Shown in pieces: positions 6,314 through 62,663 of a stretch of DNA of 64,000 bases. Source of the stretch: Octopus vulgaris (lineage: Eukaryota). A program made the position numbers and the translations under genes. The notes beneath the pieces were generated by a model. The model saw only the letters and a list, made by a program, of their open reading frames with translations. It was not told where the DNA came from and did no database searches. Position 1 is the stretch's first letter. Each line of letters opens with the position of its first letter. The stretch is taken from contig OX597821.1 in assembly GCA_951406725.2 (NCBI GenBank), positions 90,892,001-90,956,000 on the forward strand, written 5' to 3'.

Positions 6314-6478
6314 ATCTCCTTGTTTCTCTCCTTGTTTTTTTATGTGTCCCTTTCTGTAGAAGAGCGTAGGCTCGAAACGTAAAAGACTTTTTCTATTCCT
6401 GAGCGCTATCCTAATACATCTGTTTGTTTTGTACACCACCTGTCTTCGTCTTTTGTTTTTTTTCGTAAACTCTCCCCC

Positions 6479-6510
<32 letters not shown>

Positions 6511-6728
6511 AGACTAATTTCATCATGTATTTCATCATGTTGAACCTTTAATCCCTACATATTTTTGTCTCTCCGTTTTTTCCGTTCTCTCTCCATTTTT
6601 TCCTCTCAACTTCTTCTGCTGAAGAGCGTAGGCTCAGAAAGTCAATGACTTTTCCATTCATCCCGAGCATCAAACTAATACACCTGTTTGTTTTTCCCTC
6701 ATCTTAGTCTTTTTGTTTTATGTAAATT
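6314..6728 (+). mobile_element. Two tandem PLE pseudo-LTR-like modules, each with a hammerhead-like motif, ending at (TA)n
   Basis: Repeated gaagagcgtaggctc..gactttt..cctgagc..ctaatac..tgtttgtttt at ~6350-6480 and ~6610-6728. Confidence 0.6.
6350..6385 (+). ncRNA. Minimal type-I hammerhead ribozyme motif (A6U variant)
   Basis: cttt-CTGTAGA-a-GAGC gtag GCTC-GAAA-cg-TA-aaag: stem I cttt/aaag, stem II 4 bp, palindromic ACGT in place of stem III. Confidence 0.6.
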
Positions 6729-6811: not shown

Positions 6812-6819
6812 GTATATGT

Positions 6820-6940
6820 AAAAAAATACAAACTGGGACAAGAACGCAAAACCTTTAGAAGACGATACAAAAAACACGGACGGGACATTCGAAGCCGTCA
6901 ATCTTCAGTCAAGAACCGGATCATCCTCGCAATTTCGGCT
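6820..6940 (-). mobile_element. (TA)n-flanked dispersed repeat, second copy at ~57880-58158
   Basis: aaactgggacaagaacg..gacgggacattcgaagcc..caagaaccggatcatc.tcgcaatttcggct is the reverse complement of 58038-58155. Confidence 0.7.
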
Positions 6941-9219: not shown

Positions 9220-10828
9220 ATGGAATAGAAGCAATCCGGTTCTGGCTGGACAAATATCCAGAAGAAATACCAGAAAGGATCAACAAAGATTTCATAATCG
9301 AATCAATAAGAGTCATCCTTCAAAACAACCACTTCATGTTCGACACCACTATTTATCACCAAAAATCCAGAATTGCCATAGGAACCAGGACAACCCGGAC
9401 TATTGCCAACCTATCAATGGGCTATTTAGAAATAACAATATGTTAGGAGTCATTTTCTAATTTTGGAAACCCTCTTTTCCAATACATAAAAGAAAATTGG
9501 AAAAGATTTTTGGACGATTGCTTCATCCTCTGGAATGATAACACAGACAAACATCTGGAATTCAAAAGACTATTTAATAGCATTAACACAAACATACAAT
9601 TTACAATGGAACACAACCAAGAGGAACTCCCGTTCCTTGGCATACAGGTTAAAAATAAACAAAAAATAGAAACGGACATTTTTTTACACAACCACAGGCG
9701 CTAAACAGTATCTATTATTTAGCTCATGCCACTCGAGACATAGCAAAACAAATATCCCTTTCAACATTACAAGAAGGATTTGCACCATAGTGTTCGACAA
9801 AATACAAGAGGACTAAGATTGAAAAAGCTTAAAAATGTACTCCAGGACAGACACTACTCAATTCAATTCACAAATGAAGGGTTTAAACGTGCAAAATGGA
9901 TTGACATAGAAACATTAAGAAAAATCTAACACAAAAAAGAAACACACCTAGTCTGAAAACACTACTTTATGTCTCCACATGCAACCCCAGAAACAAAGAA
10001 GCATTTAACATCATTGTCCCAAATCTCCCAATACTCCATAAGGACTCCAAATTGAAGGAAACTCTACGTACCCATAAGATCATTAAAAACACCAAGCAAC
10101 CAAAGACGTTAAAGAAGATCCTTACAAGTGCTAGTTTATTTTCAAGAATAACGGACGCAAGGGTAAAAAACCTGTGGTCGTCCTAACTGCGGTACATGTC
10201 CCAATCTTTTGGAAGGATCAGAGTTCCATTTATACAAGGGCAAAAATTCAAAGTTAAATCCAACTTCACTTGTGCCTCTGAAAAACTCCTTTATGTTATC
10301 AGATGCTCGGGCAGCTATGAAAACTACATAGGGTCGACAGACATGTCGATCAGATGGTGATGTACGGTCCACAGACAACAGATATCCTCCCCACAATATT
10401 GCCAGATATATATCTCAGTGATAACATTGACAGATGTACAGAAAAACCGACTATAATTCCTAATTTTTCCATTATATCAATTTGCTATTTGGATCCCAAC
10501 ACAAGTACGACTAAATAAAGAGGCCTCCATTTTCGAAAAATATAAGCTGGAATTAAATATAAACCCATATTGAAAGTTAAAGATTTACCCCAAATATAGA
10601 AAGAATCAAATGTAGATCAATATTAAAAATTACAGATTTACCTCCCATTTATTGTAAAATACCTTGGTTACCAATCATTCACCCTATCAAACACAATGTC
10701 AAATTCAGAAATTCAACCAAAACTCATAATTCGAAAAGCGATAGGAAAAACTTTTGTACAATATTGTGTAATACTTTTATATTCTTTAGTCTTTTAAAAC
10801 AAATCTGGGTTTTCTTCATCTTATTTCT

Positions 10829-33153: not shown

Positions 33154-33156
<3 letters not shown>

Positions 33157-33357
33157 TCAAAATGTGACTGTGTGTTTACCGTTGGCGATTTTTTTCCTCC
33201 GTCTTCCCTTCTTTGGATCTTTCCTTTTCCTATGTTTCCGACGAAGAGTTCTGCTCGAAACGTTAAACCCTCCTTCTTTCCTTCTTTCCTGAGTGGCCAA
33301 CAATACTATACTTGTTCCACGTCCTCACATTGTTGTGTTTTCATGTTTGGATTAACT
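33154..33357 (+). mobile_element. ~205-bp hammerhead-containing module in (TA)n
   Basis: Same ends (cattcaaaatgtgac...ggattaact) as 61761-61976; gttt-CCGACGA-a-gagt tct gctc-GAAA-cg-TT-aaac at 33234-33268. Confidence 0.75.
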
Positions 33358-35474: not shown

Positions 35475-35583
35475 TTTATAGGAATGGTCATTTTGCCAGT
35501 TTAGCCAATAAAAACACATGCACTATATGTTTGGTGTTAAATTGCTTCAGCATTATTTATTTTTTACATTAATCTTAATCTTA

Positions 35584-35630
35584 TTTCGGCCAGAGTTCTT
35601 TCATCACACTTCTGTGACCTCATCAGTGGT
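35584..35630 (-). ncRNA. Partial hammerhead-like motif in a PLE-like fragment
   Basis: Minus strand CTGATGA-GGTCA..TGGCC-GAAA; stem I partner not evident. Confidence 0.35.
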
Positions 35631-36109
35631 CCTTTGCTTTCTTCTTTCTTATTTGTGTGTCTCTCCTTACTAATGGTCAGCCATTTTGTATTTTGTATTC
35701 CTATTGTATGTGTCCTTATTTGCGCATGCTTATACCTCTATGTGTGTCTATGTTTAGTTAGAGGGGGAAGTGCCTGTAGTATTTGTATCTCCTGTTTATA
35801 CACGTTCGTGTAATTTGTTTTTGTTTATTTTTATTTTGTTCAAGTGTTTACACCTACTTATTATTATTGTTTTTTTTTTGGTCTTATTTAGTTAATTTTA
35901 TTTTAATGTATATAGTTATTTACTTCCATTTGTTTATTTATCTGTGTATTTTATTATGTTTTCTTTATATTGTTACCAGTTTATGAAAGCTACACACATA
36001 ATAGAAGATAAACCTAGCCTGAATAGGAAACTGGAATGGAACACTAGCACACACACCCAACTCACCACAGCATATGACAGAAGAAGATCCCCATAAACTG
36101 GTAACAATA

Positions 36110-57879: not shown

Positions 57880-58159
57880 TTATTGTTTTTACGTATTTTT
57901 GTATTTTCATTCGTGTAACATCGTCCGTTTTCCGTCCTTGTTTTGTATACATTCGAGGCTTTCTTCCAGGGAATCTAATGCGCTTGGCTTAGATTTTCCT
58001 TTGGGGCTGGCCAGGTCGGAGCAATCTCAAGATTAATCAGCCGAAATTGCGAAGATGATCCGGTTCTTGAATGAAGATTGAAGGCTTCGAATGTCCCGTC
58101 TGTGTTTTTTGTGTCGTCTTCTAAATGTTTCACGTTCTTGTCCCAGTTTGTATTTTTTT

Positions 58160-58318
58160 ACCTTCTTGGGATCTTTCCTTCTCCTTGTTTCCGACGAAGA
58201 GCTCCGCTCGAAACATTAAACCCTCCTTCCCTTCTTTCCTGAGCGTCAAATAATACTTTAATCGTTCCCGTCCTCGCGTTGCTGTGTTTTTTTCTGTGTT
58301 TTCTTGTTTGGATTAACT
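58160..58318 (+). mobile_element. 5'-truncated hammerhead module, same family as 33154 and 61761
   Basis: gttt-CCGACGA-a-GAGC tcc GCTC-GAAA-ca-TT-aaac at 58187-58221; same ggattaact 3' end then (TA)n. Confidence 0.75.
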
Positions 58319-59534: not shown

Positions 59535-61440
59535 AGAGAATGCTTCATATTGTGTATTCAATAATTGTGTTGGGTTGTGTTCTTGTATTTGTTTAAATTC
59601 TCTCAAGCATAAACAACACGGAGCATTTTGGTCCTGGTACAGAAGAGTGAATAACGAACCATGTTATATCGTATGGTATATTTGTTCCGAAGTTTGCGTA
59701 TATAGTCAACTAGAGGAGTAGGTCTGCTGTGGTTTTCATATTTGAAAGCATTTAAAATTAACAGTCGCTCCAATGTAAACCTTGTTAGAGTTTTGCTGTC
59801 TGTCTAGTGCCGACTTATATTACGTTACATCTTCTGTAGTTAGCTTGTAAAGGGCAATTATCAAATACTATAAAGTTACAATTGGAACTATTTAGTTTAG
59901 CGTTCTGCTTATTAAGTGAATTACTATCGGTGTAACTAAAAATAACCAATCATGTGTTAAGTTACGTTCGTCCAATTCGTATTCCTCATCTGTGCAATAT
60001 TCTGGGGTGTTGTCAGTGTTATGAATGCTATTATTGTTAAGATTGGCTGTATTAGAAGTATTGGTGATAGAGAACATCGATGTTCCAGTCCCTTGAGAGT
60101 TAATTAATCCTACGCAGTTGCCGTGCTTGGTTGTGTAATCACTATTACTGTTGTTGTTGTTGTTACTGTTGCTGCTGCTGCTGTTGTTGTTGGTGGTGTT
60201 GGTGGTGGTAGTGGTGGTGGTGATGGCAGCGGTGGTGTGTTGTTGTTGTTCGTAGATTGTGAGTTATGTATGTCAAATTTGCGCCTGTTAGATGCAACTA
60301 CGATTTATCTGATATTAGGTGTAGCTGAATAAGATAATTTAAAAGGGGATACATTAAAAATTGAGCGGTATTTATGCTGTGGTAGGAAATTGGATTTAAT
60401 AATGGCGAAAAATTGCTTAGATAGGCCCTTAACATTGAAAGAGAAGAGAATGTATTCCAAAATATAATTCTTCCCCGCTTTTATTTGATAATCTTGGGGC
60501 CATGTAATTGAAGTTCCTAGAAGGTATCTGCAATATGATTTTATCCCCAGGTTTATTTATCGTGTGAGTTCTGTTGGGTTTAAGGCAGGCCGTTGGACGT
60601 GTTCTGCGTGTTGTTTGTTATGGAGTGAGGGACTGAGATTGCATATTTCCATATCTAGTGGGTATTTTTATGTTCGTAGCTTTCGAGAGACTAGAACTAG
60701 GATTTAAATGTGTTGCGTAATTCTTCTTGGTGTTAGGTAAGAATTTTATATTGTGAGAAAACCCACTGGCTGATAGTGCTTGATTATAATAGGTGGCATC
60801 ATCATCATCATTGTTTGACCGTGGTCGATACAATGGAATTTACCATGCTACGCCAGACTTCACGGTCCATCATGGCATTGCGGAGGTCCTGTTGCTGGAT
60901 GCCTGTATCCCTGGAGATTACATCAGGGTAGGTAGGAGAGTGTGCGCCCTCTGGTATTGCGAGTAGATGACTTCCAGAGGAGAAGAGTAGAAATTACCTC
61001 TTTTTCAGCTCTACAACAATGTCCAGCAAACTGGACTCTCTTACCTTTCACAAGAGATGACACAGGTGGTAGTTTCCCATATATTTGCATGTATGCCATA
61101 GGTGGCATACTTATTAAAGACTTTTTCAGTTGCAGACAAATTGGAAATTCTAAAGGAGATACCATAACTTATGCTTTATAAAACAGACATATGGTTATTA
61201 GGGTGATTAGCAACATTCTTTAGATACTCATTAGACATACGGGACTAGAATACAAGAAGAGTTTAAATCAAAGGTTATGTTTCCAAATGTAGTCCTTAAG
61301 TTAAAGTTAGCGAAGTACTTATGGAGAGTTTTTCTGGTTCTCTTGAGTGCCGGTTTCGATAGGCCGGTAGTGATGAGAAGATTGCTGTCACAATAAAGTC
61401 TACCACGATTTGTAGGAAAGTATAGACAAAGCTGTTAACA
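59535..61440 (-). mobile_element. Decayed Penelope-like element of a second lineage (RT C-terminus to GIY-YIG)
   Basis: Minus strand GRLYCDS (cf. GLYRDD), LSATEKVFNKYATYYNQALSASGF, KYRSIFNVSPFKLSYSATPNI, CPLQAN..NVI..KVYIGAT, CCLCLRE. Confidence 0.8.
60800..61097 (-). mobile_element. 5'-truncated RTE LINE 3' end nested in the PLE
   Basis: IYGKLPPVS..RVQFAGHCCRA..LLLWK..AMMDREVWR plus (TGA)n tail; 11-bp TSD ataggtggcat at 60789-60799 and 61098-61108. Confidence 0.9.
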
Positions 61441-61524
61441 GAGGTGTAGCACGACTAGGTCAGTGACCTGAGTTGAGTCGGATGAAGCCATGGATATGCG
61501 GAAAAAAATCAAAATATATATGTG

Positions 61525-61688
61525 GCTGGCTGCTTTCATTTTCCATCCTCCAAATTCACTCGCATGGGCTTGGTCAGTCTGTGGCAATAGTAGAAGACCG
61601 TCGCCAAAGGTTCCATGTGCAATGGGACTGAACCCAAAACCAAGTTATATGGAAGCAAACTTCTTAGCACAGAGTCATGTCTGTGCCT
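61525..61688 (-). mobile_element. 5' part of a degenerate SINE family B
   Basis: ccaaattcactc..gggactgaaccc..cacagagtcatgtctgtgcc. Confidence 0.6.
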
Positions 61689-61760
61689 ATACATACACAC
61701 ACACGCGCACACACAAACAAACACACACACACACAAACATATATATATATATATACATAA

Positions 61761-61976
61761 AGTTAATCCAAACAGGAAAACACAAAGAGAAAACACAACA
61801 ACACGAGGACGTGGAACAAGTATAGTATTATTGGACGCTCAGGGAAGAAGGAAAGAAGAAGGGTTTAACGTTTCGAGCGGAGCTCTTCGTCAGAAACATA
61901 GGAAAAGGAAAGATCCAAAGAAGGGAAGACGGAGGAAAAAATCGCCAACGGTACACACGCGGTCACATTTTGAATG
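61761..61976 (-). mobile_element. ~215-bp hammerhead-containing module
   Basis: Reverse complement of 33154-33357 with the same boundaries. Confidence 0.8.
61863..61897 (-). ncRNA. Minimal type-I hammerhead ribozyme with complete catalytic core
   Basis: GUUU-CUGACGA-A-GAGC UCC GCUC-GAAA-CG-UU-AAAC: stem I GUUU/AAAC, stem II 4 bp, palindromic ACGU in place of stem III, as in PLE hammerheads. Confidence 0.75.
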
Positions 61977-62663
61977 ACATACATACATAGATACGTATAT
62001 GTGTGTGCATATACATGCACACACATACCCATGAACACACACGAACATACATAGATACTAAATGCAATGAACACAAAATAACAGAAGACAACACAGGTAA
62101 AGCAAGCCTTAACAAATGGTGTGTTAACTTAACGCTTGAAAGCAGTGAAAACGTCATAAGTCTTTGACGCTAGTCTTTCATAAGAAGAAAAATATGAAAA
62201 AAGTAGAGAGAAAGAGTGAAAGAGATGCGTAAGTGACTTTTTGAGTGGGTTATTGCGTGTAAAGGTGAGCGAGTGTGAATGTATAGTGGTGCAGGATACT
62301 GGTAGTATTAGGTCTTGGTGTTGATGCGTATGTGTAATCGTATTTGTGAGAGGAAAAGTGTGAAAGTGCTGAGGTAACTGTAGGTGTCAGTGTGAGTAGG
62401 TGGCAGCAGCAGCTGTGAGCAAAAGAAGTTGGTGGCAGGTGTGAGTGTGATGTGAAAACGAAGGTAAGAGGAATGTGGAGATAGTGGTAGAAATGTATGT
62501 AGTGGTTTGAATGTTAGTACTGTTGGGAGAGAAGTGAGAGAAGAAAGGTTAAAAAAAAAAGAAAGAAAGAAATGTTATAATGCAACACTAGCACAAAAGA
62601 AAGAAATGTCTTGTGATTTTGTGAAATACATAGAGTGGCAAGATGAAGGTGAAAGAGATGTGT

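Follow-up and report, generated by a model that had tools for sequence, protein, structure and literature searches.

An abundant octopus repeat with a minimal hammerhead motif is the pseudo-LTR of a Penelope-like element, probably of Neptune type

GIY-YIG nicking followed by target-primed copying is established biology of Penelope-like elements (PLEs). Neptune elements are characterized in the account of PMC8557442 by a CX2-5CxxC linker between RT and EN, a C-terminal EN and a bias for (TA)n, and the same source gives Nematis a linker finger too. For Drosophila Penelope, PMC2377424 describes a promoter inside the pseudo-LTR and a 3′ pseudo-LTR that can drive transcription. The minimal PLE hammerheads described in PMC4209133 have a short helix I, an extra base between positions 9 and 10.1 and a palindromic sequence at 15.2–16.2; that report records no cleavage of monomers and low cleavage of dimers, and considers such motifs, which are mostly single, “probably related to truncated PLEs”. 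According to PMC3088659, the U4C change in a hammerhead core cuts in vitro activity considerably, yet allows viroid infectivity. Finally, Li, Clavereau and Pollet (2026, 10.64898/2026.07.22.740005) present retrozymes as proposed derivatives of PLE pLTRs. Here we analyzed a 64,000-nucleotide stretch of Octopus vulgaris DNA (the window) and conclude that an abundant octopus repeat of ~200 bp found in it, hereafter the module, is a new family within the known Penelope-like elements. Literature searches revealed no paper on this PLE family, which may be present in Repbase, Dfam or supplements.

The focal copy, at positions 61761–61976 on the minus strand, is a solo pseudo-LTR spanning module positions 1–216; it has a U4 core and belongs to subfamily A of what is probably a Neptune-type PLE. 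A second solo pseudo-LTR, at 33154–33357 (+), has (TA)n on both sides and a U4C core, and blastn aligned it at 92% identity over module positions 1–188, with a short deletion close to the 3′ end. The third copy, at 58158–58318 (+), is 5′-truncated at module position ~50, lacks the first ~50 nt accordingly and is 87% identical to the remainder; its core is also U4C and its palindrome is broken (ACAU for ACGU). The core of both plus-strand copies reads CCGACGA, and the blastn E values of the three copies ranged from 1e-111 to 5e-51. In all three, the 3′ terminus GGATTAACT adjoins a TA-type run, which for the focal copy is the microsatellite at 61740–61760 (−), the target at its 3′ junction, and two of the three begin with CATTCAAAATGTGAC. 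Both blastn and the sequence agree here with the initial annotation, which had reported three copies sharing a 3′ end beside a TA-type run and two of them sharing a 5′ end; it had placed the third copy at 58160–58318, where a plus-strand copy is indeed present, but the start is at 58158. On its 5′ side the focal copy borders a (TATG)n-like sequence, and the 58158 copy borders the T-rich terminus of a different repeat. No tRNA was detected in 61400–62400. A decayed member of a very abundant SINE-like repeat family, which has matches in 117 fetched loci, lies beside the focal copy at 61520–61690. Two further repeats were observed at 6819–6940 (−) and 57885–58160 (+), and in a nested insertion the 58158 copy is fused with the T-rich terminus of one of these two.

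A DNA search of the 2.8-Gb genome returned 2,900 candidates, and the 40 that were scored showed 94–100% identity. Exact 27-mers from the 3′ part of the module matched 7,285 and 1,623 times, that is, at least 8,908 copies; since the same patterns read backwards as controls gave 0 matches, the module matches are not due to chance. Sixty evenly placed 10-kb stretches contained nine module pieces at 85% identity or more, and because four of these nine belong to one complex insertion, they represent 6 insertions in 600 kb. Extrapolation suggests ~28,000 copies genome-wide, while a count of 7 insertions gives 33,000, with a range of 13,000–67,000. Against the 7,285 and 1,623 matches inside the module, a 27-mer from the UTR ~150 nt upstream of it matched only 161 times, and solo modules exceed long copies roughly 20–45 fold. 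The module is also present in public contigs under four organism labels; no run recorded as RNA was listed among its carriers.

Shared sequence extended upstream beyond the module in two of the 30 best-hit loci, and a search with it revealed many copies with an AC-rich tract; in 3 of 15 such loci, for each of which 10 kb was fetched, the coding region was reached. One of these loci (L061) contains, in order, PLE RT motifs, a CSRSRCNTC linker, a GIY-YIG domain with CCHH, a stop, an AC-rich UTR of ~1.7 kb and the module. Its endonuclease pattern is GLIYCxxCxxCxxLYVG...H...H, and the CCHH, whose two Cys lie between GIY and YIG, was read directly in translations; the Pfam GIY-YIG match in this locus (E 0.0019) lies below the curated cut-off, and RVT_1 matches of the element are likewise weak and sub-cut-off. 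A second locus (L130) consists of the module, a TTATATAC leader, the ORF, an AC-rich 3′ UTR, the module again and (TA)n, and a third (L316) has the same plan, with the same 216 nt on both sides of the RT, Cys-linker and GIY-YIG ORF. Inside the element the module terminus GGATTAACT is followed by TTATATAC. This exact module–leader junction occurs 45 times, which makes it not credible that loci of the L130 and L316 type are chance nestings. The upstream copy in both is a variably truncated partial tandem, as is characteristic of a pseudo-LTR, and among 30 leader-bearing copies the 5′ ends of the upstream module range from −607 to +182. A protein search gave 16,687 candidates, of which 150 were scored and 20 stretches hand-picked; 10 of the 20 proved to be a young sister family, and in 7 of the 10 non-sister ORF loci the module lies downstream of the ORF on the same strand. 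The translated ORFs of the module family are broken (L061, L072, L075 and L130), and over the greater part of the RT the broken frames of L061, L130 and L316 share 81% identity with the intact ORF of the sister family.

Because the module flanks an RT and GIY-YIG ORF on both sides, we identify this ~216-nt unit as the pseudo-LTR of an EN+ PLE. The CX2-5CxxC linker, the C-terminal EN and the (TA)n target point to a probable Neptune-type clade, as judged from motifs. The solo pseudo-LTR that the initial annotation had offered as one option is thus the reading to which L130 and L316 lead, whereas its independent or retrozyme-like family is not supported, the module being a terminal repeat of a PLE with coding capacity (L061, L130 and L316). 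Random fragmentation of a longer PLE had also been raised there; the copies are indeed fragments of a longer PLE, but their sharp 5′ zone is not that of random pieces. Other PLE material was seen nearby and elsewhere. In one insertion, at L195:8691–9321, module pieces in both orientations surround 115 nt of leader, an inverted layout typical of PLEs. The window contains a broken PLE-type RT remnant of a different family at 9327–9786 (+), 29–40% identical to the sister ORF, and L067:5244–6695 contains a 484-aa frame of another PLE family with RVT_1 and GIY-YIG matches.

The young sister family has the same layout as the module element, with an intact 1,008-aa ORF and head-to-tail tandems of ~6.2 kb. 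Its end, for which 327 exact matches were counted, is 72% like the module over module positions 67–214, and its RT–EN region has 631 relatives annotated RVT_1, often with GIY-YIG. Many near-identical intact ORFs of this family were observed at loci L116–L122 and L135 (for example, C10:97805500–97824900). In the sister family 23 of 30 copies are long and two end near the place equivalent to the module start, so that a sharp 5′ boundary is not a general property.

End statistics were drawn from two samples picked by 3′-part patterns, the first 30 matches of each, all on contig C1; the best-hit list, which favours full-length matches, was left out. Alignments reached the terminal TTAAC/GATTAA in 30/30 and 29/30 copies, and a stricter motif test found the exact 3′ end in 52 of the 60, and in 49 this end was immediately followed by a TA run. 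At the other side, 3 of the 60 copies were long, 32 had their 5′ end at −14 to +14, 15 at 15–50 and 10 beyond 50, corresponding to a stop rate per nt of 0.082 at the boundary versus 0.002 at 51–139. The clustering of 32/60 ends near position 1, together with the low count of the UTR 27-mer (161), indicates that the form of ~200–216 nt dominates. The (TA)n targeting and the preferred size of ~200–216 nt proposed by the initial annotation are both evident in these figures; of its fixed ends, the 3′ end is exact, but the 5′ end is a zone, 25 of the 60 copies being shorter. Production of the 5′ ends at the hammerhead cut was rejected, as 1/60 fell at positions 105–115, near the predicted site. The TCATTC at the boundary, which we take to be an initiator-like motif, is not required as its cause, for a subfamily in which the visible copies have TTTC at this place keeps the same boundary.

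The hammerhead motif of the focal copy was located by sequence and motif scan at 61863–61897 and reads from 61897 to 61863 on the minus strand, with a predicted cut between 61867 and 61866. It comprises stem I (GUUU/AAAC, open and of 4 bp only), the core CUGACGA, an extra A left unpaired between A9 and G10.1, stem II (GAGC/GCUC) closed by a loop 2 of 3 nt, GAAA, an ACGU palindrome and U17. The minimal PLE hammerhead is thus present with its core boxes, additional base, short helix I and palindromic 15.2–16.2. The CUGACGA core with ACGU in place of stem III, which the initial annotation had read as a complete minimal hammerhead, is found in the sequence and corresponds to the minimal type I motif described in PMC4209133. 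The core is, however, complete in the focal copy and not as the form of the family: exact counts in the genome were 4,299 for CCGACGA, 859 for CUGACGA and 150 for CCAACGA, so that the family majority departs from the minimal PLE hammerhead at position 4 (U4C). The U4 core occurs in 65/71 copies of subfamily A and the C4 core in 55/59 of subfamily B. The possibility that the focal U4 arose from a C4 core by CpG decay was ruled out, both because CUGA (859) far outnumbers the opposite-strand decay product CCAA (150) and because U4 tracks subfamily A and C4 subfamily B. In the sister PLE family the core is U4C in 25/25 and stem I is mismatched.

The best predicted fold of the module monomer pairs up the hammerhead core (−7.7 versus −4.6 kcal/mol), and the fold stability of the motif gave a z of −1.33. 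Among the listed pair types, no two-sided stem change was found at 8 pairs in 139 copies of the module family. Between families, of which there are few, stem I changes in step (GTTT/AAAC, CTTT/AAAG, ACAC/GTGT). Non-CpG core bases vary by 1.4%, compared with 3.5% elsewhere, a difference to which we give no weight because the compared rows had been selected by similarity. With a threshold as loose as E ≤ 10, Rfam still gave no hammerhead match for the module, and the 150 matches listed for the whole window included microsatellite-driven miRNA matches. The module motif does not qualify as a canonical type I hammerhead with loop 1–loop 2 contacts. Dimer cleavage of hammerheads of this kind was reportedly described by Lunse et al. 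in 2017. For the octopus family, self-cleavage is predicted to be weak and to require a second copy paired through ACGU; the hammerhead probably does nothing in lone copies, and in solo modules it is likely a passenger carried along in the pseudo-LTR. Two other hammerhead-shaped features were noted in the window. At 35560–35680 (−), core at 35626, a CUGAUGA...GAAA motif whose boxes are separated by a long insert lies within a repeat that has 4 other copies (~89–94%) among the fetched loci. The ends of another PLE-like family, at 6320–6480, 6560–6720 and 140–275 (−), carry a motif with stem I CTTT/AAAG, stem II GAGC-GTAG-GCTC and often U at core position 6; this family is present at 24–32 of the loci fetched.

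To compare solo and long copies, a tree was built from 139 near-full-length modules (76 solo, 63 long) out of 172 matches at 82% identity or more. Each of the two main subfamilies contains solo as well as long copies. Most branches have weak support, and the tree gives no indication of a solo lineage of its own. The solo/long label changes 33 times, against 45.8 in shuffles (0/500 as low), a clustering that row selection can inflate; a single supported clade, of 3 rows, is solo-only. Branches are star-like, with few derived changes shared among solos, and some solo-to-solo copying may have occurred.

Taken with the parent element, these data make it very probable that the module is the pseudo-LTR of a Neptune-type PLE and that the solos are short RT products put into (TA)n by its own RT/GIY-YIG protein. 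The GIY-YIG endonuclease of the family would nick (TA)n, the nick would prime at the element's own TA stretch and so generate the exact 3′ end, copying would usually stop or run off near module position 1, and short stretches matching the TA target would fix the 5′ junction. Run-off near position 1 would most likely arise because many templates begin there, from a promoter inside the pseudo-LTR; run-off from such a template and an RT stall zone appear to us about equally likely. A boundary produced by RT stalling or by a microhomology hot spot in full-length RNA, with no transcript starting at it, is possible but doubtful. A 7-bp hairpin (CGGUCAU/UGUGACCG) spans it in one long copy, at an unexceptional z of −0.85, the AT-rich AAATGTG stretch resembles the target, many 5′ junctions overlap TA-like bases, and internal-deletion junctions cluster in the region. 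Yet subfamily C, in which the hairpin is weaker, keeps the same boundary (14/30 at −14 to +14), the zone is passed by 6/9 upstream pseudo-LTRs but by 2/20 solos, and the AC-rich UTR, despite its TA-like matches, has 0 5′ ends in −160 to −15, where 3 copies were at risk.

The same comparison of stops, at −5 to +12 in 18/20 solos versus 3/9 upstream pseudo-LTRs reaching +12 (Fisher p 0.004, post hoc), could also be accounted for by a SINE-like offshoot, in which the solo is transcribed from an internal promoter into its (TA)n flank and then copied again by the PLE protein acting in trans. The 20–45-fold excess of solos, the supported solo-only clade of 3 and the ability of the Penelope 3′ pseudo-LTR to drive transcription (PMC2377424) fit such an offshoot, but solo and long copies are interleaved, with common subfamily markers and star-like branches, and the step on which it depends, transcription from near position 1, also belongs to the preferred reading, from which 139 short sequences cannot separate it; we regard it as unlikely. 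Least probable by far is an independent non-LTR retrozyme, in which tandem hammerhead units would give circular RNA and rolling-circle copying. The module is near the retrozyme size range and has a hammerhead motif, 13 two-module minis of 361–687 nt exist, 5 with both cores, and single contigs of two runs contain a head-to-tail module joint. However, no head-to-tail hammerhead arrays were found at the primary copy of the 60 pattern-picked loci or in the 30 best hits, which argues that the module is not a retrozyme; this absence, together with the mixing of solo and long copies within subfamilies, also tells against the retrozyme-like reading of the initial annotation. Moreover, the ends lie off the predicted cut (1/60 at 105–115), the hammerhead is minimal and not canonical, the module is 69% pyrimidine and 47% paired as a circle, unlike the “highly self-paired” circles that PMC7229834 describes, and the parent PLE has been identified.

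Among the 30 leader-bearing copies, 7 extend into the ORF for at least 1,468 nt and 9 stop after 42–128 nt of leader; in 1 the sequence jumps inside the ORF. The remaining 13 are internally deleted, with 209–466 nt of leader joined to a second module. The resulting module–leader–module units measure 361–687 nt (11 measured), and 5 contain both cores; in L306 the two cores are U4, in L311 they are U4C. In these 13 copies the downstream module joins the leader at about −45 to +57, a cluster equally compatible with a zone of RT pausing or jumping and with a transcript start; the junctions of L299 and L311 are identical, while the others differ. These minis are rare and have the appearance of internal deletions or template jumps that occurred repeatedly; they resemble a first step toward retrozymes. 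Separately, contigs of two runs matching window positions 61782–61958 each contain one head-to-tail module joint at a depth of ~10, possibly from one rare genomic dimer. It is a decidedly improbable scenario that the PLE is turning non-autonomous in two ways, through promoter-driven, SINE-like solos of ~210 nt and through circle-forming minis that cut as dimers despite U4C; if true, minis whose two hammerheads lie 360–690 nt apart arise repeatedly and would be retrozymes at birth.

As repeat annotation, these results tie an abundant repeat of ~200 bp to its parent retroelement. Its sharp 5′ boundary and exact 3′ end could serve as a genomic read-out of PLE template starts and priming, its U4C majority, intact sister included, tests whether PLE hammerheads need to cut (PMC8557442, PMC4209133), and the two-module minis are naturally occurring intermediates of the kind expected if animal retrozymes derive from PLE pseudo-LTRs, as has been proposed. 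With the minimal hammerheads described in PMC4209133 the octopus family shares type I topology, a 4-bp helix I, the unpaired base between 9 and 10.1, G10.1–C11.1, a palindrome for helix III, presence in both pLTRs of full elements and a predominance of single dispersed motifs; relative to that description, the 4-bp helix II, the U4C majority and the sharp solo 5′ boundary are peculiar to it. With the Neptune EN+ PLEs of PMC8557442 it has in common the C-terminal GIY-YIG with CCHH, a CX4CxxC linker, partial pLTR tandems, inverted pieces (L195) and (TA)n targets, whereas its AC-rich 3′ UTR of 1.7–2.6 kb and extreme excess of solos set it apart from the elements described there. Like the non-LTR retrozymes of PMC7229834 and 10.64898/2026.07.22.740005, the module is short and non-coding and has a type I hammerhead, but in contrast to them it showed no tandem arrays in the sampled copies, its hammerhead is minimal and its ends are set by the TA junction, not by a cut site. 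Solo pLTRs and pLTR-flanked captures are known from Adineta Penelope (PMC3846280), and pLTR-mobilised non-coding units from the non-autonomous Chlamys/MRC1 (PMC8557442); in those accounts the copies are few and ascribed to deletion or recombination, whereas in octopus there are thousands, each in a microsatellite.
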